Virus record (IMG/VR): IMGVR_UViG_3300025141_000137
Span: 1 to 52,742 of that record
Length of the DNA stretch: 52,742 nucleotides
Strand: one strand, 5' to 3'
DNA from: a virus
Taxonomy: Duplodnaviria > Caudoviricetes
The position numbers were made by a program, and so were the translations under genes. Position 1 is the stretch's first letter. Each line of letters opens with the position of its first letter. The notes beneath the pieces were generated by a model, which had not been told where the DNA came from, made no database searches, and saw only the letters and a list, made by a program, of their open reading frames with translations. Of the stretch, positions 1-44,486 are shown piece after piece.

Positions 1-408
1 TCTGCAGACATCCTTGCTGTGGACATCCAGAACTTCCCTCAGCCACATGCCCGGACGTCGATCCAGACTGACTTTTTGGAGTGGGGCCCGCCTCAACCGT
101 GCTTCGATCTCGTGATCGGGAACCCCCCTTACAAGGGGGCCGAGACATTCGTTGACCTTTCGATGCAGTGGCTGCGCCCCTCGGGCAGCTTGGCCTTCCT
201 CCTACGGATGGGCTTTCTCGCCTCAGTAAAGCGGTATGACTTGCTGGAGCGTTGGAAGCCCTCGCACATCTACACCCTTGCGGGGCGTCCCTCCTTCTAC
301 GGGGAGAACAACGACCGTTATGACTACGCCTTCATCGTGTGGCCTCGGACGCGCCCCGCTCTGACAGTTTGGGATCATGTAAAGACCCCAAAGAAGCGTA
401 GGACCTGA
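1..408 (+). CDS. Amino (N6-A/N4-C) DNA methyltransferase, 5' truncated
   Basis: DFL...FDLVIGNPPY catalytic motif and FLLRMGFLAS segment typical of small phage MTases; frame open back to base 1. Confidence 0.85.
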   Translation, partial: SADILAVDIQNFPQPHARTSIQTDFLEWGPPQPCFDLVIGNPPYKGAETFVDLSMQWLRPSGSLAFLLRMGFLASVKRYDLLERWKPSHIYTLAGRPSFYGENNDRYDYAFIVWPRTRPALTVWDHVKTPKKRRT

Positions 409-562
409 TTGAGAATGGGAGGCCCATATCTCCATGTCAGAAGTCTCGACCATTGGGGGGGCCTCTAGAGACATTGGCCCTGGTAGTTGAGCCGTCACGC
501 TCGCCGCTGTCGATAGGTCCCCTGCTTGAAGGGTGGCCACGCGAGCATCTTTTGGAGAAGTC

Positions 563-655
563 ATGGATCCCCAGGTAGTTGAAGCTCTACAAGAACTCCT
601 GGCCTGGGGAGTCAGCCTTCTCCTCCTTCTGCTCTACCTACTCGGAGAAGAATGA
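563..655 (+). CDS. Small single-TM protein (30 aa, MDPQVVEALQELLAWGVSLLLLLLYLLGEE)
   Basis: Read manually; GGAG upstream; stop overlaps next start (ATGA); below ORF-track cutoff. Confidence 0.55.
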   Translation: MDPQVVEALQELLAWGVSLLLLLLYLLGEE

Positions 656-1020
656 TGTGGATCGACACCATGCCCGCCATCCCGCTCGCCCGTGGGGTGC
701 CCGTTTTGTGGGACGGCGTCAGGGCCGTTTGCACGCATGGCTTCGGCAACGGCAGCGCCGAGATCGAGGTCCGACATCCCAACGGCACTCGCACGCAGCA
801 CGTGGTGGTGCCTCGGCAGGTGAGCGTCGATCTCGCTGACCCCCAGGGCTTCGGCTACGCGCTACGCTGGCTGCGCTACCGCAAGGGCACGGAGTACTTC
901 AGTAACATTGGCGGGCCTTGGTTGGTTGAGTCATGGCTTTCTGGTAAGACCACCGACACCGACCGCCTCGCGCTGGCACAGGCCATCGCTGAAGTGGTGG
1001 GAACCAATGGAGAAGAGTGA
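652..1020 (+). CDS. Hypothetical phage protein
   Basis: GGAG RBS, coupled to neighbours by 4-nt overlaps. Confidence 0.7.
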   Translation: MMWIDTMPAIPLARGVPVLWDGVRAVCTHGFGNGSAEIEVRHPNGTRTQHVVVPRQVSVDLADPQGFGYALRWLRYRKGTEYFSNIGGPWLVESWLSGKTTDTDRLALAQAIAEVVGTNGEE

Positions 1021-1226
1021 TGTGGATCGTGTGCTGGAGGCTCGGAGACACAGTGGGCAAGGGTCACCCCGGGGACAGGGCAACTGCCGTCAGTTGGGCC
1101 AAGGATGGCAACAAGCGGTGGGGCGCAGGAACCCACTGGGTAGTTCAGATCATCGAGGGGGGCGCGAAGCCCCTAAAACAGCAGCAACCCAAAAATGATG
1201 AGGATGGCTGCAGCGAGAGTCACTGA
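1017..1226 (+). CDS. Hypothetical protein
   Basis: GTGA overlap with upstream stop; 3' end overlaps convergent small ORF. Confidence 0.55.
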   Translation: MMWIVCWRLGDTVGKGHPGDRATAVSWAKDGNKRWGAGTHWVVQIIEGGAKPLKQQQPKNDEDGCSESH

Positions 1227-1286
1227 GGAGATGAACTCCAGGCTCTTCTCGTCATCCAGCCACTTCTTCAGCTTCTGCAGCAGCAT
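1173..1286 (-). CDS. Small membrane protein (37 aa, MLLQKLKKWLDDEKSLEFISSVTLAAAILIIFGLLLF)
   Basis: Read manually; AGGGAG SD upstream; charged N-terminus plus C-terminal hydrophobic helix; last gene of the lysis block. Confidence 0.6.
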   Translation of the reverse strand: MLLQKLKKWLDDEKSLEFISSVTLAAAILIIFGLLLF

Positions 1287-1298
1287 TGGCGACTCCCT

Positions 1299-1342
1299 AT
1301 AAAATAATAAAGGGTGACCCCTCGATATGAGAGATCACCCTT
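1299..1342 (-). terminator. Intrinsic terminator
   Basis: AAGGGTGA...TCACCCTT stem (1310-1342) followed on minus strand by TATTATTTTAT. Confidence 0.75.
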
Positions 1343-1403
1343 AGACAGTAGAGCTTAACCTTGTTGCTACTTCAACGCATTACCCAAGTGCTATGCCCTA
1401 CTG
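1299..1403 (-). ncRNA. Candidate ~105-nt structured RNA
   Basis: Long hairpin 1403-1346 (CAGUAGGGC/GCUCUACUG plus inner UAGC/GUUA, CUUG/CAAG) between a sigma70-like promoter and a terminator; no ORF. Confidence 0.4.
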
Positions 1404-1408
1404 ATATT

Positions 1409-1437
1409 ATGTTACTTACTTATTCATCATCGGGCAA
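1409..1437 (-). promoter_or_regulatory. Sigma70-like promoter
   Basis: TTGCCC-17 nt-TAACAT on minus strand; predicted +1 at the hairpin start. Confidence 0.45.
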
Positions 1438-1701
1438 GAAGGGAATGTTATCCTCTGTCACTTCTTCCTTTATTTCTGTGGCAGCATTAGCGACTCCCTT
1501 GGCAGCTTCTCCGAGCTTGGCGCCAGCAGCCACGGTGGCAGCGGCATCCACAACGCCCTGGCCCACAACGTAGGCAGCCACGAGACCAAACAGGGCCTCG
1601 GCGTTCTCTGCGGGCAGTTCCACGCCCAGGAACGTGCTGATGGCGACGAGGGCCATCCCGATAACGGTCAGAATGAGCTTACGAGAGGCGAGCTTTTCCA
1701 T
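1420..1701 (-). CDS. Holin
   Basis: Two hydrophobic segments, SRK N-terminal and AYVVGQGVVD motifs, near endolysin. Confidence 0.75.
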   Translation of the reverse strand: MEKLASRKLILTVIGMALVAISTFLGVELPAENAEALFGLVAAYVVGQGVVDAAATVAAGAKLGEAAKGVANAATEIKEEVTEDNIPFLPDDE

Positions 1702-2094
1702 CTAATCCCCCTGCCTTGCGGCTTTCCGGTCCTCCCTCTTATCCTGTCGAGTGAACCACCACACCTGAACTGCTGCCCTGCGCTTCTCCCGCCGGGCTTT
1801 GCGTTTTGCCCGCCGGTCTGGATCCATAGCAAGCCGGAGCACAAGTTCAGCCATCCAAGCAGCGATGTCGCCATCGTGCTCTTCCAGGAAAGGCCCAAGA
1901 GGGCCGAGTTCCAGGCTCTCGAAGTCGATCAGGACATCCACGACATTGCCAATGATCTCTGCAGCGGTACCCGTCTCGCCCGTGGCATCCAGGGCAGCGT
2001 CGGCCACAGCAAGTAGCCCGGACTCCTCAGCGATCTCTGCTCCAGCAGCAATGACATCCGTGGGCAGCTTGGAGAGGTCGAGGGTTTCCATCAT
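1702..2094 (-). CDS. Hypothetical protein in lysis cluster (acidic body, basic tail)
   Basis: ORF 1702-2124; start placed at TGATG overlap with amidase stop, GGAG upstream. Confidence 0.7.
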   Translation of the reverse strand: MMETLDLSKLPTDVIAAGAEIAEESGLLAVADAALDATGETGTAAEIIGNVVDVLIDFESLELGPLGPFLEEHDGDIAAWMAELVLRLAMDPDRRAKRKARREKRRAAVQVWWFTRQDKREDRKAARQGD

Positions 2095-2708
2095 CAACTC
2101 CGATTCTTGATCCAGGCGAGGCAACCCTCGCCAAGGACTTCCCCAATCCGGGTCAGCCCGCCAGGGGTCAGTAGTGGCCGGTGCTCATCCGTATCCATGA
2201 AGCATGGCTCAAAGCACACGCCGGACAGATTTCCAGGGCCGGCATAAATCCCAGCGTAGGTGGAGAAGGCCCGGGTTCCTTGCCCAGCAGGGACAGCTTT
2301 CCCCTTGGACAGTTCCTCGAACTCCTCATCAAGCGTTCCAGCCAGGGTAACTGCCAATCCCCGCCCGCCACGGCTCCGGGGATCGTGCAGCACAGCCGCA
2401 TAGCGTCCCCCGCCTGCATTCAGGTGACAGCCGATATATGCGACCGGGGCACCATCTGCGGCACCAGCGATTGCTCCCGCGTAGGCATGGCGAGCCTTGT
2501 AGCTCCCCCACTTCAGGACCACGACTTCCACGCCCTGCGCTTCCAGGTAATCCCGAGCACTGGCAATGTAGAGGGGAGTCAGGTTCGCCTCGAACTCGTG
2601 AGCCTCAACAAAGCCATCTCCATCCAGGTCAGCGCGGGCACCCAGGTCACCGCGCCCCCCGGGCTTCCCGTGGTGCTGGCGATCCAAGATAACGATTGGC
2701 TGTCCCAT
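2094..2708 (-). CDS. Endolysin, N-acetylmuramoyl-L-alanine amidase (Amidase_3-like)
   Basis: ILDRQHHG, E, GCHLNA and VCFEPCFMD match the H/E/H zinc ligands and catalytic E. Confidence 0.85.
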   Translation of the reverse strand: MGQPIVILDRQHHGKPGGRGDLGARADLDGDGFVEAHEFEANLTPLYIASARDYLEAQGVEVVVLKWGSYKARHAYAGAIAGAADGAPVAYIGCHLNAGGGRYAAVLHDPRSRGGRGLAVTLAGTLDEEFEELSKGKAVPAGQGTRAFSTYAGIYAGPGNLSGVCFEPCFMDTDEHRPLLTPGGLTRIGEVLGEGCLAWIKNRS

Positions 2709-2715
2709 TTTTAGC

Positions 2716-2988
2716 TCACTTCACGGGCACTAAGAGTGGGCTGATCTCGCTGGTATCGGTTGGAGCCGCTTCGACATCGGCTGTTGCGGGCTCACAGATG
2801 TCTTCGGCGTACACCTCGTTCGCCTCGTAGGCTTCAATGAGCGCCATCAGTCCATCGACGTTGATTGCCTGGAGCACTTCTTGCTTGGCTTCCATCGTCT
2901 GAATGAGTGCCTGGGCTTCCTGCTCTGCGACGGGGGGCGCTGGATCTGCAGCGTGCAAGACGGATACGAACAGGATGGAAAGCATCAC
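2716..2988 (-). CDS. Small exported protein
   Basis: Hydrophobic N-terminal signal-like peptide; abuts upstream stop. Confidence 0.6.
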   Translation of the reverse strand: MMLSILFVSVLHAADPAPPVAEQEAQALIQTMEAKQEVLQAINVDGLMALIEAYEANEVYAEDICEPATADVEAAPTDTSEISPLLVPVK

Positions 2989-3318
2989 TCACTCCGTGGC
3001 TGTGCAAGACGACGGAGGATCGCCGCCTGACCGGGTAACCAGATCGCAGAGCATGGCATGGTCATCTTCGACCAGAGCTTGGAGCGCTTGGCCCTGCTGC
3101 TGCGTGAAAAAGGGGTAGGTCTTGTCATCGAGACCGAACTGGCGCAAGACTTCCATGCTTGCTGTAATAGCCACGAGGATGAGCGTGAGCCGTCCGATGG
3201 TCCCAGATACATCCCCAGCAACCAACTGGCGTAGCCCTCGCAATACGAGGTCTGCGCCTGTTTCTTTTTTGGGCTCTTCCCCGGAGACTTCCTGCTCGTT
3301 CGATTCGTCGGACATCAT
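2989..3318 (-). CDS. Single-TM membrane protein in lysis cluster
   Basis: LTLILVAITAS hydrophobic stretch; GAGGGG RBS. Confidence 0.65.
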   Translation of the reverse strand: MMSDESNEQEVSGEEPKKETGADLVLRGLRQLVAGDVSGTIGRLTLILVAITASMEVLRQFGLDDKTYPFFTQQQGQALQALVEDDHAMLCDLVTRSGGDPPSSCTATE

Positions 3319-3333
3319 GTCCCCTCGTCAGCA

Positions 3334-3591
3334 TCAGTCTGAACAAGCCAGCAGCAGCGCAGCCTGTGCGGGAGTCAATCCCTCCGCTTCTAACACCTCC
3401 CCGAGGTTCCCCCCGAAGCGAGATTCCAGAGACCAACGCTCGATCAGCGCAGTAAGGCGCTCCTCTCCCTCCCATCCGACACCCTGCTCCTCTAGCAAGC
3501 GGGCCTCTTCGACGAGAGCCTGCATTGAGACGGTATCCGCCGCATCCTTGAGAGCAGCAGAAGCGCCACCATATCGGTCAAAGTCACTCAC
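3334..3591 (-). CDS. Hypothetical protein
   Basis: ORF 3334-3651; start placed at GTGA overlap with upstream stop. Confidence 0.6.
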   Translation of the reverse strand: MSDFDRYGGASAALKDAADTVSMQALVEEARLLEEQGVGWEGEERLTALIERWSLESRFGGNLGEVLEAEGLTPAQAALLLACSD

Positions 3592-4649
3592 GAGGATGGT
3601 CCGTCGTATTGAGGCATGAACTTGTAGTAGACTTTCAGCGCCTGAGTCCAACCCGAGGCCATGCCTCCAGCGACGGAACCAATGCCGCAGAAGATCTGGG
3701 GTGAGGTCCCGAAGTCCTCATTCATGGAAGTTTGCACGGCACTGTCTGTGGTGACCCCGGCAGCCGATTGTGCATTAACGATCTGGATCGCCCAGACCGA
3801 GGATCCTTCAGGCTCCCACCGCAGCACTACGCCCTCGAATCGTTGCGGATCGTCTGAAGCGACGTTGCCGCTGACATTCCTTGACGAGCCTGCCTTACAG
3901 GAGACCGCTTTGATGACCCCGGTGCTCGTCCGGTCCACCCCACATGCGATCCCCTCGTTAGACCCGAAGGTATCGTTTTCAGTCAGGCCCGCGTAGACCC
4001 CGTTCTGGCTGGAATCCGCAGCGGCAATCTCATCAGCGTCGGTGACAAGGATGATGGAGTAGGCAGAGAACATCATGTCATCAAATGAAGCTGCCGAGCA
4101 GATGGGGCTGGTGAATCCCATGCAGAACCCGTCCGTTCCCGCTTGGTACATATTGCACTTCTGAGCGCCATCAATCGCCAACGTAGGGTTCGTGGGGGTA
4201 GAGAAGTCCTCGTTGGGTTCGTCCCGGGCGTCTACAGAGCCAACAGTTGTGGTGGCATAGGTCCTCGTAGTCCAATCGTGAAGGATGTGGCCGCTGTCGG
4301 TCCCGATCTGGATGACGTGCTTGACCGTGACGGTGCCATCAGTACAGGCAGCAACCCAGTTTCCGGCAAGCCACTTGTCGTCGTCCAGCCCGTTGTAGGG
4401 GGTCCAGGTGACTGAGGCAGTATCCTCAGCAGATAACCGGGAAGTCTGGCTAACTCCTGTCGGATCTGTGAGGGTCCAGGAATAAGACCCACCACCCCCC
4501 TCTACCGTGCTCGTGACTTGGGCCAGGGTGTCCTGCTGAACGACCAGCCCCCCGGCGATGGCGAGATTAGAACCACTCCCCCCGCCAGACCCATAAAGTC
4601 TCGTACCGTAGGGAGTCCCAACTGAGGAGAGAAAAGGGCCAGAAGCCAT
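3588..4649 (-). CDS. Virion structural protein, fibre/receptor-binding-like
   Basis: G/S/T-rich beta-type composition, Ig-like YSWTLT segment, end of structural operon. Confidence 0.55.
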   Translation of the reverse strand: MASGPFLSSVGTPYGTRLYGSGGGSGSNLAIAGGLVVQQDTLAQVTSTVEGGGGSYSWTLTDPTGVSQTSRLSAEDTASVTWTPYNGLDDDKWLAGNWVAACTDGTVTVKHVIQIGTDSGHILHDWTTRTYATTTVGSVDARDEPNEDFSTPTNPTLAIDGAQKCNMYQAGTDGFCMGFTSPICSAASFDDMMFSAYSIILVTDADEIAAADSSQNGVYAGLTENDTFGSNEGIACGVDRTSTGVIKAVSCKAGSSRNVSGNVASDDPQRFEGVVLRWEPEGSSVWAIQIVNAQSAAGVTTDSAVQTSMNEDFGTSPQIFCGIGSVAGGMASGWTQALKVYYKFMPQYDGPSS

Positions 4650-5976: not shown

Positions 5977-8900
5977 TCACTTCACATCAGGAGGCAACGG
6001 GTAGCGTCTCTCTTCTGGGAGCCGAGTGTGCTCAGGAGCCAGTTCTTCTCGGTGGGGAGAGCGGGACATTTTCTCTGCGAGAGCCTTTAGCTCGTACTCA
6101 GCCTGCTTGGGCGCGTCGTAGTGGTACTCCGCCCCGAAGCGCGTGTAGTAGCGGAAAGCGTATTCCCAAGCTGCCCTATTCTTGGGGACATACGTCAGAG
6201 GATTCAACAGCGAACCGCCGGACTCCATGTAGGGGTTGGTAGCAACGCCCCCCGCCAAGTAGGGCGCCTGGGTTCCGAGGACCGGAACGGTCCTCATCAT
6301 CAGGTGTGCCCAGACCGGGATCTTCATCTTCCCGGTGTCCTCGTCGGGAATCATCAGCGCTCGGCTTTTCTCGAACCGGCCCAGGATGCGCTCTTCTGCG
6401 GGCGTGAGCGTCCGGTAGTCGCTCCGGTTGGAGTAGGAGAGCGCAAGGCCCATTCGGTCACCTACCCACCTGAATGCCATCTCAAGCGGTGGGAAAGTCA
6501 TCCCGAGGAGGGGCTCAAAAGCCATGGCATCCATCTCGTCCGGACGCTCGGAGGGGTCTCTCCAAGGCGCGGCCTTCTCATACGCCCAGGTCATCAACGT
6601 GAGCCCAGCGTTTGCCATGGCAAAGCTGTCGAGCATCGTGAAGGGCGGAAGGATGTAGGCAGTATGCGTGGCCTCTTTACCCAGGTTGTCCCTGAGCCAC
6701 TGGCGCTTGGCAGTGGAGGCCCCCGCTGCTCCAAGGATTGCCCGTGAGTCCATCCACCGTGGGTACATCCGCTTGTAAAGCTCGTCCATCTGCTCGGCGT
6801 GCCCGATGGCCTCGTCAGGGTCTCCCCCAAAGAACAAGTCGGGCAGTCCGCTGGTGATGGCAACCTGCTGTCGGGCACGGGCCAACCGGGTGCGTCCTGT
6901 CAGCGCCCGTGCCATGTACTCACCCGCAGGCCGAGTGAAGGGTTCAATGGCCGCGCCAGTTGCCTGCTTCATGGCCAGTCGCCAGAAGCGGTAGAAGGGG
7001 ATCATGCGGACGATCCAGAGGTCCATCTCCTTCCGAGCCAAGCCATGTTTCCAGTCGTACAGAGCGCTGAGGGTGCGCTTCTTGGCTTCTGCCCGGGTTG
7101 CTCCCCGCTGGATGAGGTCCAGGTAGAACGCCGAACGCTGACGTTGCTGCACGATGGAAGCCTGTTCACTCAGGCTTCGCTGCCAGCCCTTGGCCTTCTT
7201 GAAGGTTTCCATGAAGGGGCTGTTGACGAGCCTCGAACTTGTGAGGTACTTCAGGACCTCCTCATGCACAAAGGTGTCGAGGATCCCATCGTCAGTGAGC
7301 CACTTCCGCGCTTCAGAGAACTGCGTGACTCTGTTGCCCTTGCTGACAAAGAAGCCATCTTCTCCTCGGAAGAACCTACCCAGCGCTGGGTTGAAGAAAA
7401 CCTCCGTGACGGAGGGGAGCCCCGCTTTTCGCCCGGCTTTGTCGAGCCCCTCTGCCGCGTTGAGCAGAACCTCTTGGAAACGGCGGCCCGGAGCCCCAAA
7501 GTTCGTCAGGACGTTCTGGAAAGAGAGCAGGCCCGAGCGTGCAACCCCAACCTCTGCCCACATCTGAGAGAAGTCTCCAACAATGTTGTTGGTCCAATAG
7601 CGGACGTTGGGGACGGCTACCCCGGTGATGGTCGAGACCTTCCAGGCAGAGATGAGTTCGCTAGTGAAGTCGATACCCAAGACGGGCTGGTCAGTTGGGA
7701 GCCGAGCGAGAGCCGTCAAGTCCTTGACGTAGCCTCGATACGACTCCTCCACGGCATCCATGAGTGCCTTTGGGACGATGACGTTCTCTCCAATCTCAAC
7801 GAGCTTCCTCTGAATCTTTTGGCCATTCTGCACGATTCGATGCACGTCTTCCGTGAAGGGCAGCCCCATCTTGACGGAAGCTCTGGCAGCGGCCTCCAGC
7901 CCCTCCGAGCCCAGATGAGTCGTCTCTCCTGAGAGGACACGGTTCAACTGACGCCCCTCGTCCATGGTGATCAAACCACCCGCCATCTGCTTCACATGCG
8001 TGCCGAGCCGGTCGTGGGCTACGCCAGCAAGGACCGCCATGGCGCTCTTTCGGACCCCATCCTCGTCGCTCGCAACATCTCCGAAGACGGCCAGCGTCCT
8101 CTTCTTCATCTCCATCGTGAAGTCGTCAAACGTGCCCTCGCCCTTCTTGATGAGGTCTATGGCAAAGCTACGGAGGAGAGCCTCGCTTCTGGGGGCGGCC
8201 TTAGTTCCGGTAGCCACCCAGGCATACCCCAGGGTCTTGATCATCAAGTTGACTTCCCCAAGCCCACTCAGAGCGTGGACCAAGCCCTCATCTGTAAGGT
8301 CGCCAACCAGCTTCTCTATGGAGGCAATATCGACAAGCCCCTCCTCTGCCACGGCATTCTGGACTTGCTTCAGCGCACCCTCCCGCTTCGTGGTTGCTCG
8401 GAAGAGGAAATCTGCTACCTCCGCTGGATCTCGGTAGCTGGCAGAGGCGATCCCCCGCAGGCCCGCATCCCAGACGAGTTCCCCCTTGAGGAGAACCTGG
8501 AGGAGAGACTTCCCCTCCTTGAGTGAAATCTCGGTGAGGGGCTTGTCGATGTAGTCGCGGAGGACTTGGAGGGGGTTTTTTGCCCGGGAGGTCACCTCAA
8601 AGACTTCCTTCTGGGCCAAGTCGAGGGTGTTCTCGAAGAGCCGAAGCCCATCTGCCATACCCTCACCGACCGCTCCTACATTTGCCTCGACGTAGTCCGT
8701 CTTCCGACGGAGTTGTTTGATGTAAGCCCCAACCTTTTGGAGGCGGTCTCCACGGCTGGCAACTCCCAAGTCCTGCCAAGACCCCCAGATCATGGCTCCG
8801 ACGACCCGAGTGGCCTCGGTCGCCCGTTTTGTCTCGATCACCATCACGGTGTTGCTGATGATGTCCTGGATCTGTGCAGCTTGAGCCTTGGTCAGATCCT

Positions 8901-11900
8901 GTGCCCCCAGCCTGACCAGATCGCCCCAAACCTCCCCCGACACCTCGGCTGGCGCGTACTTTGGGTATGCCTTGATCAGAACGCTCTGTGCCTTCTGTGG
9001 ATCCCAGGTGAGAAGCTGCTCCTCACCCGGCCCCCAACGGCCAACGCGCTTGAATGAGGCAGCGATAGCCTTGCCCGCCACGATCTGAGCGCCTTTCTTG
9101 TAGACCGCCCCGATTGCATTGAGTTCATCCCAAGAGGTCGTGGCTCCTCTCCAGCCCCCGTACCGCTTCTTGATGTACTTGTTGTGCATGAGCATGGAGT
9201 CGATCACGGCCTGCATCGCAGCGACTGCCCGGGGCTTGAGCTCCTCGGCGTGCTTGATTTTCAGCCCGAGTCTGCCGACCTCTTTTATGCTCTTCTGAAG
9301 GTCAGCTATTGACTTGCTGGAGGCTCGCTCTGCCTTGGTAAGCCCCCTCTGGGCTTTGTTGTAGGCAGTCCTGGCCTTCCGGGCCTTCTTCTCAGCCGCA
9401 CGGGCTTCAACAAAGAACCCACGGATAAGGCCGCCCTTTTTGAGGTCCTCTTTTGCTGTTTCAAGCATGGCCCTTTGGAGCCCCAACTCCTCGATCTTCT
9501 TGCCGACCTCTAGGTCGAACCAATGCTCCGCGCTCTTCACACTACCGTGAGACGCAGTAATACGGGTCGTAAGCTCTGGGGAGACCCGCACCGCGCCTGT
9601 CTGTACTCTCCCGGCTACTCCTGCAACCTCAGCTTCCAGTTTGCCTACTTTCGTGCCTGCCTTAGCGATCTCCTTCCGTGCGTACAGGCTCGCCTGTAGC
9701 CGCAAGCTGCCACGGCTCGGGTCGAGGCCAGCCTCTTCGGCCCACTTAGGGAGGGGCCCCAAGTATTTGTCCACGATGCGTTGAGCATCCCCGATGAAGC
9801 CTGGACCATGGGGGGCGAACCCCGTCTCTCCGAACTTGAAGATGTTATTGACCCTGTCAAGACGCGCTTCGCCCCACCCGGCCGCCCGTGGGCCTGGAAT
9901 GTTGGGGTTGAAGCCGGCGGGATCTCTCTTGAGAGCCTTTATCTCTGCGCGAATCTCCGCCCGTAGGGCTTTCTGCTCAGCCTCGTAGCCCCGCCCTTGG
10001 GCTGGAGTCAGAGGGGCTTCGATTTCATCGGCCCTCGCCGCCCAGAGAGATTCTGTTTTCTTGGCTTCTTCGAGGGACTCTTCCAGGGCCTTGAGCCGCA
10101 GACCCACCGCCCCCTCCGGGGCTGCCTTGGGGGCCCCAATCTGCCTCAGGACGTTCGATGTCTCCCCCTCCGCTGTCAGGATGCGGACGATGACGTCCCC
10201 ATCCTCTCTGACCCGAGCCGCTGCAATGTGAGGGGCTCCCCCCACGGCTGGGATTTCCCCAGAGAGCTTGATCCCCCCCTGGACCATGGCTGCAATCTCA
10301 GGGATCTCCTCAAGAGCCTCAAAGTGTAGAGCGCGGGCCTTGTCGAGCGCGAGCTTGGCCTTCTGCCCCTTGATCTCCAACGCTATGATTTCCTGTTTGA
10401 TCCGCTTCAACTGCGCGTTGACCTTCCTCTGGGCCTTCTGCCCTGACGTGCCGATCTCTTCGAGGTCCTCGGCCTCTTTGAGGAACTCCAGCGCTTCATC
10501 GGCTTCGGACTTCCGAGCCAGGAGGGTCAGTTCCGCTTTCTCCAACTCCTTTGCGGCAACAGCTACATCATTCTCCCTCCGGAACTTATCCATCGTGGTG
10601 GCGTCTACCCCCTTGGGGTCGCCTCCCTTAGCCTCCGGGGCGTGCTTCCTGATGTAAGCCTCTTCCCTGGTCGCCCGGTCAAGTCTGAGAGCACCGAGTT
10701 CCTTGTTAGCGGCTTCGACCTTCCGCATGACTTCTGCAGAACGTGCTTCGATCTCTCCAGCAACCGCATGTTCAAAAGCCTGCCGAACCTCGGGGGCTTC
10801 TGAGTTACGCATCGTCCGCATGAACTCGCGCCCAGAGGCTTTGCCTGCCTCGTAGGCGTTGAGCCCTTCCTGCCCGATGGCCGCTTTCGCCCCCATGCGA
10901 GAAGTCTCGGCGTAGACCTTGCCGATCCGTGCGCCTGCACCAGCCACACCGAGGGAGAGGGAGATGGGGTCGGGCTCAATGAGGATGAGGGGAATGGCGA
11001 TGGATGCTCCAACCGACTTCCTCATCCAGAGCGGAGCCTTCCCATCCTCGTAGATGTAGTTGAGGTAGAGGTCTCCCAACTGGGGGAGTACCTGGAAGAT
11101 GTCTGCGCCCCGTCGGACCTCCTCGATTGTCCGCTCGTGCCCCCAACTCTCTCCCGTCCGGATCATTGCAGCGAGCCCGGTTGTGGGGGCAAGCCGCCCG
11201 AACTGCGACAGGGCACCCTCCATCTTGAGTTCGCCCGGGGTGAGAATCCCACCCTCAGTCCAGGTCACGGGTCGCATGACCGCAGCAAGAGGCCGAATCA
11301 CTGCCGGGAGCTCCATGATCTCAGCGGTAACGTCCGTACCGTAGGCGTCTACCCAGGGGACGCCCCGATAACGGTTCACAGCCTGGGCAAAAGCGGCGGT
11401 GGAAACGGACTCGGCCTCGGCTTCCAGCCAGCGCTTCTGGACGTCAGACGCTGTCCTCCACTCGATGCTGTGTACCCGAGCGAGATGCTGCACCGTCTCG
11501 CGGAAGAGCTTTTCCTTGTACCCCTTGTAGTCAATGCCCGTTCCGCCTCCGGCCAAGGCCACCAGGGGCAGCGCGGTGTCAACTCTCTTGATGACCGGGT
11601 GTGTGTAGGTCTGGTGCCAGATCCCCCTTTTCCTGGCTCCCTCGGCTGCAAGGACATGGCGGGCGGGCGTTGACGCCGCACGGACATACGTGCTCTCCCA
11701 GACCCTTCGGACGGCTTCCTCGTCGTCAATCTCCTCGGGCTTCAGGTAGCCCTGCCGGACAAGATCCTGCCGCCTCTCCTTGGAGGGCATCTCAAACTCA
11801 GCCGAGTAGAATGCCCGGATGTTTGCCCGCTGTGAGGGTTGTCGGAGAGCAAGACTGGCCTCCTGTGCCGCGCTCATCGGAGGCTCATGGGGCGAGACCT

Positions 11901-12084
11901 GTGCTCTCATAATCGGCGGTTCATAGAGGGGCTCAGCAGGCTCTGGCCTCGCCTTTGGAGTCTTGTATACGCGGTTGGGATCAGGCTCCCAGTTGAGGAA
12001 CTCCTCTGGGGACATGGCATAGGGAGTCCGTGACTCCTTGCGCTCAGGGGTTCCCTCTTCAGGGGTATCGACAGGCTCTGCCAC
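5977..12084 (-). CDS. Very large internal virion (DNA ejection-like) protein, 2035 aa
   Basis: Size, helical/coiled-coil composition, third of three genes of rising size after the tail genes as in podoviruses. Confidence 0.65.
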   Translation of the reverse strand: MAEPVDTPEEGTPERKESRTPYAMSPEEFLNWEPDPNRVYKTPKARPEPAEPLYEPPIMRAQVSPHEPPMSAAQEASLALRQPSQRANIRAFYSAEFEMPSKERRQDLVRQGYLKPEEIDDEEAVRRVWESTYVRAASTPARHVLAAEGARKRGIWHQTYTHPVIKRVDTALPLVALAGGGTGIDYKGYKEKLFRETVQHLARVHSIEWRTASDVQKRWLEAEAESVSTAAFAQAVNRYRGVPWVDAYGTDVTAEIMELPAVIRPLAAVMRPVTWTEGGILTPGELKMEGALSQFGRLAPTTGLAAMIRTGESWGHERTIEEVRRGADIFQVLPQLGDLYLNYIYEDGKAPLWMRKSVGASIAIPLILIEPDPISLSLGVAGAGARIGKVYAETSRMGAKAAIGQEGLNAYEAGKASGREFMRTMRNSEAPEVRQAFEHAVAGEIEARSAEVMRKVEAANKELGALRLDRATREEAYIRKHAPEAKGGDPKGVDATTMDKFRRENDVAVAAKELEKAELTLLARKSEADEALEFLKEAEDLEEIGTSGQKAQRKVNAQLKRIKQEIIALEIKGQKAKLALDKARALHFEALEEIPEIAAMVQGGIKLSGEIPAVGGAPHIAAARVREDGDVIVRILTAEGETSNVLRQIGAPKAAPEGAVGLRLKALEESLEEAKKTESLWAARADEIEAPLTPAQGRGYEAEQKALRAEIRAEIKALKRDPAGFNPNIPGPRAAGWGEARLDRVNNIFKFGETGFAPHGPGFIGDAQRIVDKYLGPLPKWAEEAGLDPSRGSLRLQASLYARKEIAKAGTKVGKLEAEVAGVAGRVQTGAVRVSPELTTRITASHGSVKSAEHWFDLEVGKKIEELGLQRAMLETAKEDLKKGGLIRGFFVEARAAEKKARKARTAYNKAQRGLTKAERASSKSIADLQKSIKEVGRLGLKIKHAEELKPRAVAAMQAVIDSMLMHNKYIKKRYGGWRGATTSWDELNAIGAVYKKGAQIVAGKAIAASFKRVGRWGPGEEQLLTWDPQKAQSVLIKAYPKYAPAEVSGEVWGDLVRLGAQDLTKAQAAQIQDIISNTVMVIETKRATEATRVVGAMIWGSWQDLGVASRGDRLQKVGAYIKQLRRKTDYVEANVGAVGEGMADGLRLFENTLDLAQKEVFEVTSRAKNPLQVLRDYIDKPLTEISLKEGKSLLQVLLKGELVWDAGLRGIASASYRDPAEVADFLFRATTKREGALKQVQNAVAEEGLVDIASIEKLVGDLTDEGLVHALSGLGEVNLMIKTLGYAWVATGTKAAPRSEALLRSFAIDLIKKGEGTFDDFTMEMKKRTLAVFGDVASDEDGVRKSAMAVLAGVAHDRLGTHVKQMAGGLITMDEGRQLNRVLSGETTHLGSEGLEAAARASVKMGLPFTEDVHRIVQNGQKIQRKLVEIGENVIVPKALMDAVEESYRGYVKDLTALARLPTDQPVLGIDFTSELISAWKVSTITGVAVPNVRYWTNNIVGDFSQMWAEVGVARSGLLSFQNVLTNFGAPGRRFQEVLLNAAEGLDKAGRKAGLPSVTEVFFNPALGRFFRGEDGFFVSKGNRVTQFSEARKWLTDDGILDTFVHEEVLKYLTSSRLVNSPFMETFKKAKGWQRSLSEQASIVQQRQRSAFYLDLIQRGATRAEAKKRTLSALYDWKHGLARKEMDLWIVRMIPFYRFWRLAMKQATGAAIEPFTRPAGEYMARALTGRTRLARARQQVAITSGLPDLFFGGDPDEAIGHAEQMDELYKRMYPRWMDSRAILGAAGASTAKRQWLRDNLGKEATHTAYILPPFTMLDSFAMANAGLTLMTWAYEKAAPWRDPSERPDEMDAMAFEPLLGMTFPPLEMAFRWVGDRMGLALSYSNRSDYRTLTPAEERILGRFEKSRALMIPDEDTGKMKIPVWAHLMMRTVPVLGTQAPYLAGGVATNPYMESGGSLLNPLTYVPKNRAAWEYAFRYYTRFGAEYHYDAPKQAEYELKALAEKMSRSPHREELAPEHTRLPEERRYPLPPDVK

Positions 12085-43725: not shown

Positions 43726-43939
43726 ATCTCTGAGAGCCCCGCCTTTCTCAGAAGGGCGGGGTTCTCTGAGCGCTTTCTCTATCACGATCTCTCTTGGAGC
43801 AGCCCCCACAGGGTTTGCCTGTCCACCGAGGGAGTCCGGAGGGAGGCGCAGAAAGATTGAATCGTGCAAGCCCGGCCAGGCGCGGGCTTCAATCAGTTAC
43901 TCGGAAGTTGGGGGTATAGGAAGCGGGTTGTCGCTACCG

Positions 43940-44110
43940 ATACATTAGGGTATAGCCGGCACCCTTCCTATATTGTTCTTCAACTACCCCTTGGAAGAGT
44001 ATCAGATAGATAGGTATTACTTATGCATCTGTTCTATTTTATATACTATATAATAGTAGAAACAGAAAGAAGGCTCATGCCCCCTTCCCCCCTTCCTATT
44101 CCCTATACAA
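43940..44110. other. AT-rich putative replication origin
   Basis: Sharp AT-rich island with imperfect palindrome 44028-44066 (core TTATATA-C-TATATAA) upstream of primase-helicase. Confidence 0.55.
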
Positions 44111-44120
44111 AGGACCTCTC

Positions 44121-44486
44121 GTGAATACTGATCGTGCAATCGTGAAGCTCGCTATCTCCCGCCTCGCTGAGCGGACCGGCCTGGATGATGGCGCCTACCT
44201 CACTGACCTCATTCTGCGTGAGGCTGAGCGAAAGCTCCCAGACTGGTGGATCATCAAGGTAGGGCTCTCGGCTGAAGCCATCGAGACCGCTGCCTACCAG
44301 ATGGCTCGCGGTGAGAATGCCGTAGGGTTTACCCTCGATGAACTTATCGACTACCTCGGCCTGGAAGCCATCTCCTCCCCTACCCGCAAGGGTCACATCG
44401 CTCAGGTGCTACGAGACGTTGGCCTTGAGCACCGGCTGCGGACTGTCGCTACCGGTCGCAAGGCGTGGCTCTGGGTTGTGAAATAG
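44121..44486 (+). CDS. Putative winged-helix DNA-binding protein
   Basis: AAGGA RBS; C-terminal IAQVLRDVG...GRKAWLW helix plus wing pattern. Confidence 0.6.
   Translation: MNTDRAIVKLAISRLAERTGLDDGAYLTDLILREAERKLPDWWIIKVGLSAEAIETAAYQMARGENAVGFTLDELIDYLGLEAISSPTRKGHIAQVLRDVGLEHRLRTVATGRKAWLWVVK

Follow-up and report, generated by a model that had tools for sequence, protein, structure and literature searches.

The window examined in this study is the whole of the IMG/VR virus record IMGVR_UViG_3300025141_000137, a stretch of 52,742 nucleotides (nt) with a G+C content (GC) of 60% and an estimated completeness of 96%. At the 3' end of a holin-like gene on its minus strand (1420-1701), the window carries a foreign, donor-derived stretch of 190 nt with about 40% GC (1299-1488), which gives the gene a new end and leaves the old end displaced downstream. 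This stretch was truly inserted, at a site that had been uninterrupted before. Judged from its sequence, it is probably made up of the last 22 codons, the structured 3' untranslated region (3' UTR) and the intrinsic terminator of a gene from an AT-rich genome, probably a viral one. The arrangement is likely to have originated in a single recent event, in which foreign DNA was captured by illegitimate recombination with the help of microhomology.

Insertion into a formerly continuous site

A direct repeat of 26 nt (1273-1298 and 1474-1499), identical at 23 of its 26 positions and with a spacing of 201 nt, lies at the site; its score was reached in none of 300 mononucleotide shuffles of the region 1100-1750. 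The GC is 0.40-0.43 across 1300-1499 versus 0.55-0.67 in the flanks. An earlier note on this DNA had described an AT-rich insertion with the GC-rich old end of the gene lying 201 nt downstream, and this was borne out by the repeat, by the composition and by the translation. The exact 10-nt core that the note had placed at 1289-1298 and 1490-1499 reads GCGACTCCCT at both positions. The displaced original 3' end of the holin-like gene is found at 1252-1296 (minus strand), where the translation gives GVANAAAEAEEVAG followed by a stop codon, now detached from the gene.

For comparison, 11 related loci were aligned across the site. Six of them (L026, L027, L028, L029, L030 and L031, the last being the contig of L002) are uninterrupted, lack the 201 nt, and have the start of a small downstream gene overlapping the end of the holin-like gene. 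One locus (L032) has a different short end and is free of the insert, and two others (L033 and L034) stop short of the site. The full insert is present in L025, which matches the window without a difference (100% identity) over 4,046 nt, and the holin-side junction is present in L024, which is 100% identical over 1406-4046 and of which the contig breaks 17 nt past the new stop codon. The insert is known from this one near-identical genotype only. A closer empty site was detected in sequencing run X5, in which a contig joins 1279 to 1481, skips 201 nt and shows 4 mismatches in 151 nt (about 97% identity). The empty-site alleles that the earlier note had proposed to seek in relatives were therefore recovered from six loci and from one X5 contig. 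A BLASTN search of positions 1-3000 of the window against 50,697 phage records gave no match.

The same picture was obtained at the protein level. Five protein homologues of 82-83 amino acids (aa) have the first 74 or so residues in common with the window protein, and none of the five carries the new tail. Four of these homologues end in ...EV[EV]EVAG(E), corresponding to the displaced end, while the remaining one (P0004) ends in ...VAGVAI, as does L002. The displaced end is thus the true C-terminus in P0001-P0003 and P0005, and likewise in L026 and L027. Because six loci and the X5 contig are empty and because none of the homologues has the new tail, four of them ending in the displaced end, the stretch in the holin-like gene is identified as an insertion.

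The insert is not an assembly artefact, because contigs of the independent run X2 cross both junctions with 0 mismatches. These contigs, of 46,488 nt (600-1337), 176 nt (1308-1483) and 2,327 nt (1454-2300), bridge each junction with at least 35 nt on either side. The idea that k-mers common with an abundant AT-rich genome led the assembler to stitch the insert into the phage contig is barely credible. The interior of the insert is indeed a metagenomic repeat, with a depth in X2 of 30.3 versus 17.9 and 21.9 in the flanks, and the contig of L024 breaks soon after the new stop codon. The holin-side junction, however, exists in three separately named records (the window, L025 and L024), both junctions are bridged without mismatch in X2 by the 46,488- and 2,327-nt contigs, the reading frame is kept, and a 19-nt duplication such as the one described below is not a product of a k-mer chimera.

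Origin of the inserted stretch

The stretch was found in a second sequence context. Contigs from X2 and X8, both of them marine runs, match the window over 1298/1308-1488 and then continue, on both sides, into 136-184 nt of unlike AT-rich sequence. Record 6 of X2 has 0 mismatches over 1308-1483 (176 nt) and record 16 of X8 has 2 mismatches over 1313-1488; no phage flank was aligned in run X8, and run X20 gave two short, poor matches only. The 30 nt beyond 1488 are identical in X2 and X8 and, on the gene strand and in frame with the tail, encode QLSFSFMDKP. For this 30-nt donor flank, there were no exact matches in IMG/VR or in the GTDB genomes, and none in the window at up to 3 mismatches.

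A 40-aa query including the tail was searched against a collection of 5.8 billion proteins, leading to P0009, an acidic protein of 154 aa that ends in ...LQLSFSFMDKPNDATEIKEEVTEDNIPFLPDDE. The cluster P0009-P0014 consists of five proteins of 154 aa and one of 142 aa. The contigs that encode these six proteins are no longer than 3,965 nt, and the sources of the cluster are JGI, ENA and Logan. Its members end in ...QLSFSFMDKPNDATEIKEEVTEDNIPFLPDDE, with 21 of 22 residues identical to the window tail in five of the six and 20 of 22 in P0013. Among proteins of 22-2000 aa, the tail peptide was found only in the window holin and in the P0009 cluster. A wider donor family was defined by 33 representative clusters matching P0009 at E <= 0.001, and an alignment (A2) was made of 17 sequences, 16 from these clusters together with P0011 of the P0009 cluster. 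The C-terminus of this alignment is conserved as QL.F.F...D(I/L)PFLPD(D/E)E at an overall identity of 26-55%. Since the C-terminus is conserved across members as diverged as this, the tail belongs, by sequence comparison, to the donor family and is an alien part in the holin-like family.

The sole relative of the donor protein in IMG/VR, the distant L060 (33% identity; obtained with subset A3 of the alignment), is on a viral contig of 223 kb with about 35-44% GC, which also carries a DNA ligase and a tRNA-Arg. Its layout resembles that of the donor end: the stop codon is followed, after about 58 nt, by a terminator-like hairpin. The reading of the insert as the end of a foreign gene relies on the in-frame continuation of the stretch into the other gene, on the C-terminal motif of the family and on this same order of gene and terminator in L060.

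Within the insert, the last 22 donor codons (NAATEIKEEVTEDNIPFLPDDE) are located at 1423-1488 on the minus strand, followed by the stop codon at 1420-1422, and form the present tail of the holin-like protein. In this protein, residues 1-71 are native and residues 72-93 are donor-derived, while the 8 nt at 1481-1488 are assignable to either source. The ambiguity of the stretch at its two junctions amounts to 1 nt (1298) and 8 nt (1481-1488). No open reading frame (ORF) is contained in the 190 nt beyond the captured 22 codons. Next to the stop codon, on the minus strand, comes the donor 3' UTR (1343-1419) with a long imperfect hairpin, the arms of which form an inverted repeat (1346-1357 and 1392-1403), and then a hairpin and T-run resembling an intrinsic terminator (1299-1342). 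The hairpin of the latter (1342-1310) includes 14 pairs, 7 of them G-C, and the T-run covers 1309-1299. Folding of the minus-strand RNA of 1299-1419 gave -48 kcal/mol with z -7.35, and none of 200 shuffles was as stable. With the sequence pattern present and the fold very stable, we predict an intrinsic terminator at this position. No RNA runs are listed among the sequencing runs that contain the stretch. An Rfam scan of 1100-1750 (E <= 10) yielded three matches, to snoRNA models and GP20-b, all of which were rejected as far below the gathering scores.

As to the donor protein itself, there was no match in Pfam or PHROG and no usable match in the ESM Atlas; TBLASTN against the same 50,697 phage records gave no match, and a P0009 query in IMG/VR gave no related locus. 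The AlphaFold2 model of P0011 has a mean predicted local distance difference test score (pLDDT) of 63.7 and is confident for residues of about 10-50 only, and a Foldseek search with this model against the PDB gave no match at E <= 0.001. The members of the family are acidic proteins of about 130-190 aa with a small, confidently predicted N-terminal beta-beta-beta-alpha domain (residues of about 10-50), a disordered middle part and the conserved PFLPD(D/E)E end. This C-terminal end presumably resembles the acidic ...DDDIPF tail of bacterial single-stranded DNA-binding (SSB) proteins. A source of the tail in a homologous holin of some low-GC relative, as might be suggested by the end ...KEEISDDEA in L038, was considered and dropped once the donor gene had been found.

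Joints, the proposed capture and alternative explanations

At the holin-side joint, an 8-nt patch, AATGCTGC (1481-1488, gene strand), is common to donor and target, or 7 of 8 nt if the donor had GAT as in the protein cluster. The overlap at the far joint is 1 nt (1298). Past the holin-side patch, similarity continues patchily as far as 1459, and for this reason 38 nt of L027, the nearest empty-site relative aligned, match the window twice, at 1496-1459 and at 1298-1261. A stretch of 19 nt of the target, AGGGAGTCGC[T/C]AATGCTGC, is found on both sides of the insert and includes the Shine-Dalgarno (SD)-like AGGGAG and the ATG of a 37-aa gene downstream; as the donor-shared stretch spans 1298/9-1488, 19 nt is the length of target truly doubled. 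The two copies are identical at 18 of 19 positions and differ at 1288 (G) versus 1489 (A). The distal copy (1280-1298) supplies the working SD sequence and start codon of the 37-aa gene, and in the holin-proximal copy (1481-1499), which also has the SD-like AGGGAG and an ATG, the frame reads MLPQK and then stops.

Taken together, the site shows a near-identical second genome that runs on into unrelated sequence, empty sites in relatives, and short or no homology at the joints, all of them features of a mosaic joint. According to passages of Martinsohn et al. (2008, PMC2327257), the accepted sources of phage mosaicism are illegitimate recombination and homeologous recombination, in which the sequences that recombine are short or diverged. 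In the capture that we propose, about 190 nt (1299-1488) would have been taken from an AT-rich, probably viral, donor, comprising the last 22 codons of a 154-aa gene, the stop codon, the 3' UTR and the terminator. The landing point would have been the 3' end of the holin-like gene, at the very place where it shares sequence with the ribosome-binding site and the start codon of the 37-aa gene. In the duplication, an exact part derived from the target gives way to an imperfect part in which one of the copies is donor-derived. Replication may have switched template from phage to donor at the short shared patch and returned to the phage 19 nt upstream of the departure point; staggered joining would fit the pattern of the joints equally well, and it is from this pattern that we infer one or the other as the mechanism of the duplication. 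The duplication may have survived since, without a second copy of the overlap, at least one of the two genes would have been broken.

Several observations weigh against this capture. The donor context is drawn from Logan contigs of 71-312 nt and from a protein cluster. One X5 contig matches the insert exactly over 1319-1482, but its last 9 nt agree with neither the phage nor the donor context, which could be a third context or an error at the contig tip. A simple illegitimate exchange with two breaks predicts no 19-nt target duplication, and template switching or staggered joining has to be assumed together with selection. The difference of G at 1288 versus A at 1489 calls for a mutation after the event or for another parent; the contig with the empty site in X5 shows the 1489 state. 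Chance 16-mers with one mismatch score 13.5, which is more than the holin-side joint, and a score of 13.5 is reached in 11 of 60 shuffles. A phage with 60% GC and a donor with about 40% GC would have to have met in one cell, and the complete match between the two over 176 nt (X2 record 6) would also fit a spreading cassette, as discussed below. The possibility that homology steered the insert to its best-matching site was tested and rejected, as other places in the phage genome match the donor stretch better than the joint does; the site was not singled out by homology.

Based on the repeated core, the earlier note had proposed an att-like (attachment-site) scar or a minimal non-autonomous element that targets a lysis gene. 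In its general form, this would be a minimal non-autonomous element of integrative or transposable type, or what a larger element left behind. Mobilised in trans, it would recognise a core in the holin 3' end, duplicate or restore this core and supply a new gene end, an explanation that we consider decidedly unlikely. It is supported by the exact 10-nt repeat at both ends with an imperfect repeat beyond, by the clean empty sites, by the occurrence of the stretch in two genomic contexts or more (with 176 nt free of mismatches in X2) and a hint of a third in one X5 contig, and by 20 runs from 16 studies that contain part of the stretch, most with 0.35-0.55 of its sampled words. Elsewhere, however, the stretch starts inside a gene, with 22 codons left to the stop, and in codons for the conserved motif of the family, indicating that no end of an element lies there; with the other context being the interior of a gene of an unrelated 154-aa family, the att-like reading of the note is not supported. 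In X2 and X8 the stretch runs into the 154-aa gene on one side and towards the start of another gene on the other, with no core repeat flanking it and with loose ends that differ, and the tail peptide occurs in no third family among the proteins of 22-2000 aa. Restoration of the 3' end of the target gene, which the note gave as common among integrative elements, is not seen here either, the new tail being derived from a non-holin gene and not from a homologous holin end. Of the hallmarks of an att site, the identical core is present at both junctions, while a recombinase and the same bounded unit elsewhere were not found. PHROGs scans, which covered 40 of the larger window ORFs at E <= 1e-5 and 7 ORFs near the site at E <= 0.01, detected no integrase, transposase or reverse transcriptase among these 47 ORFs. 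Terminal inverted repeats are absent from the insert, which contains stem-loops and, away from its ends, one 8-nt pair (1306-1313 and 1467-1474). It is present in a single copy in the record, and no further copy was detected in 59 fetched loci besides L024 and L025. Exact scans gave no hit in IMG/VR with a 33-mer and none in IMG/VR and the GTDB genomes with a 28-mer, scans from which diverged copies would escape. A diversity-generating retroelement was also rejected, as the differences between the repeats (T/C, C/T and A/G) are not confined to adenine and no reverse transcriptase was found in the PHROGs scans. It is highly improbable, too, that the 190-nt unit is a spreading "3'-end cassette" of marine viruses that moves between unrelated genes and viruses by microhomology-primed copying, although the exact identity across genomes of 60% versus about 40% GC, the many runs with the unit only and the X5 contig end that matches neither context would fit. 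Such a cassette would combine the PFLPDDE peptide tag, a stable 3' UTR (z -7.35) and a terminator, and its supposed role in tagging proteins and insulating downstream genes is held to be just as improbable.

The transfer might also have taken place in the opposite direction, with the AT-rich genome receiving the stretch from the phage lineage, or both genomes might have received it from a common third source. Two contexts alone give no direction, and identity of nearly 100% indicates a recent event either way. The composition, however, fits the donor (about 40% GC versus 60% in the phage), the C-terminal motif is kept in distant members of the donor family and missing from all holin homologues, the layout of the locus fits the donor side, and the sites are empty in the phage relatives; we judge the chance of either alternative to be very slight. 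Of a different kind is the proposal of an adaptive module swap, which is compatible with capture as the mechanism and adds selection for the acidic PFLPDDE tail (for lysis timing or a new partner) and/or for termination before the 37-aa gene. The lineage is a successful one, with 0.95 of the sampled words present in X2 and X3 and 1.00 in X1 (possibly the source sample) and with mean word depths of 17.9 and 21.9 for the flanking contigs of X2. Furthermore, the motif taken up is the very end that the donor family conserves, and acidic tails of varied length are common in the holin-like family. The in-frame fusion may, on the other hand, be the bare minimum for survival, and the insert is present in one near-identical genotype (100% over 1406-4046), giving no sign of long-term retention. 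An adaptive swap appears unlikely on this balance, and a single, recent capture by illegitimate recombination is kept as the likely explanation.

The altered gene cassette and its place among known systems

The insert is located at the end of a minus-strand cassette consisting, in order, of a 204-aa gene, a 140-aa ORF, the holin-like gene, the AT-rich stretch and the 37-aa gene; the order of the cassette genes is kept in L002. The 204-aa gene (2708-2094, minus strand) may encode a cell-wall hydrolase, a function weakly supported by a PDB search that gave just 1xov, "Ply protein" (E 0.9), and this ORF has no Pfam or PHROG match. The 140-aa ORF (2124-1702, minus strand) is the next gene upstream of the holin-like gene. 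The chimeric holin-like gene encodes a predicted two-helix membrane protein of 93 aa that ends in KGVANAATEIKEEVTEDNIPFLPDDE. It shows weak PHROG holin matches (phrog_9987, E 9e-4; phrog_4712, E 9e-3) and no Pfam match, and one of its protein homologues bears the source name "XapX-like". We use the name "holin-like" since the assignment is weakly suggested by these PHROG matches and by a neighbour without a family match. The last gene of the cassette (1173-1286, minus strand) encodes a putative single-pass membrane peptide of 37 aa, and its ORF is conserved, overlapping the holin end, in L002/L031, L026, L027, L028 and L030.

The consequences for both genes can in part be read directly from the sequence. 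The holin-like gene reads in frame into the donor codons, giving 93 instead of 82 aa (+11 aa) with a more acidic tail. In agreement with the earlier note, the holin has a new tail, 22 donor codons having replaced the old end, which was displaced intact. The small gene keeps its own SD sequence and ATG, and the overlap of the two genes is resolved. The terminator that the note had placed before the formerly overlapping 37-aa gene corresponds to the terminator-like hairpin (1342-1310, minus strand) with T-run just upstream of that gene, and this hairpin now stands between the two genes. No promoter-like site was found in the region, and transcription of the cassette should for this reason largely stop before the small gene. 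Placed behind a putative terminator, the small gene should be transcribed less, unless there is read-through, and its translational coupling to the holin-like gene is probably lost.

Some other features of the surroundings and of the record were also noted. A plus-strand ORF of 69 aa (1017-1226) converges on the 37-aa gene and overlaps it, and at their meeting point there is a G+C-rich hairpin (about 1155-1172) that lacks a T-run on either strand. The PHROGs scans gave matches in the window for major head protein, portal, large terminase, primase, helicase, exonuclease, DNA polymerase and methyltransferases. An ORF of 2,035 aa (5977-12084, minus strand), located among the structural genes, has no PHROG match at E <= 1e-5. 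The inserted stretch is one of two AT-rich islands in the 52.7-kb record (GC below 0.45 over 150 nt). The other (43886-44171), with a minimum GC of 0.37, is intergenic, contains promoter-like A/T words, is unlike the insert and lies just upstream of a 121-aa ORF (44121-44486) that precedes the primase gene; a function in regulation or as an origin is probable. In L024, all 103 mismatches to the window are packed into window positions 4047-4588 (L024:114-655), within an ORF of 353 aa (4649-3588), and 55 of the 103 are at third codon positions, without specificity for adenine. The encoded protein is Gly/Thr-rich and tail-fibre-like, and its N-terminal half appears to have undergone a homeologous replacement. 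Upstream of the diverged patch, positions 1-113 of L024 (a contig of 3,740 nt) are AT-rich and unlike the window, and a second joint between the GC-rich phage lineage and AT-rich DNA is possible there.

For this one mosaic joint, the recipient, the empty site and the donor context are all visible in publicly available sequences, and the resolution of the joints is that of single bases. The case indicates that a gene fragment, and not only a whole module, can be fixed if the reading frames stay intact, and that a short target duplication can part two overlapping genes. The exchange of DNA between viruses of very different base composition suggests that they met in one cell, and, if the donor can be identified, the shared 190 nt would offer a clue to which hosts two uncultured marine viruses infect. 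The new holin tail and the terminator before a conserved 37-aa membrane peptide also make a testable prediction on lysis control.

The event can be compared with four known systems. Some integrative elements enter a gene at its 3' end and bring, at their att site, a new end for it. The insert resembles these in having direct repeats at its ends, in the in-frame replacement of the gene end and in the displacement of the old end downstream; it differs in that it carries no recombinase, supplies an end not homologous to the target, is unbounded elsewhere and is only 190 nt long. Miniature inverted-repeat transposable elements (MITEs) and other non-autonomous transposons include the mycobacteriophage mobile elements (MPME) of about 440 bp. 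Like these, the insert is small, codes for no mobility of its own, is associated with a short exact direct repeat and resides in a phage genome. Unlike them, it has no terminal inverted repeats, is present in a single copy and was not detected in the exact scans of IMG/VR and GTDB.

Morons are extra phage genes with their own promoter and terminator. The insert is similarly AT-rich relative to the phage, lies between genes that are adjacent in relatives and ends in a putative intrinsic terminator, but it contains neither a complete gene nor a promoter-like site (0 found), and its 22 codons are fused to the upstream gene. The closest likeness is to the mosaic joints of phages, for which the "mosaic genome" model is reportedly due to Hendrix. 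The piece in the window differs from these in being a gene fragment with a terminator, placed within a coding overlap and flanked by a 19-nt target duplication, and its donor and recipient are about 20 GC points apart with no detectable gene in common. As in phage mosaic joints, there is a near-identical foreign segment with abrupt borders, a short homeologous patch at one border with hardly any at the other, and a viable recombinant, and the event is a new and unusually well documented instance of this well-known process, phage mosaicism.

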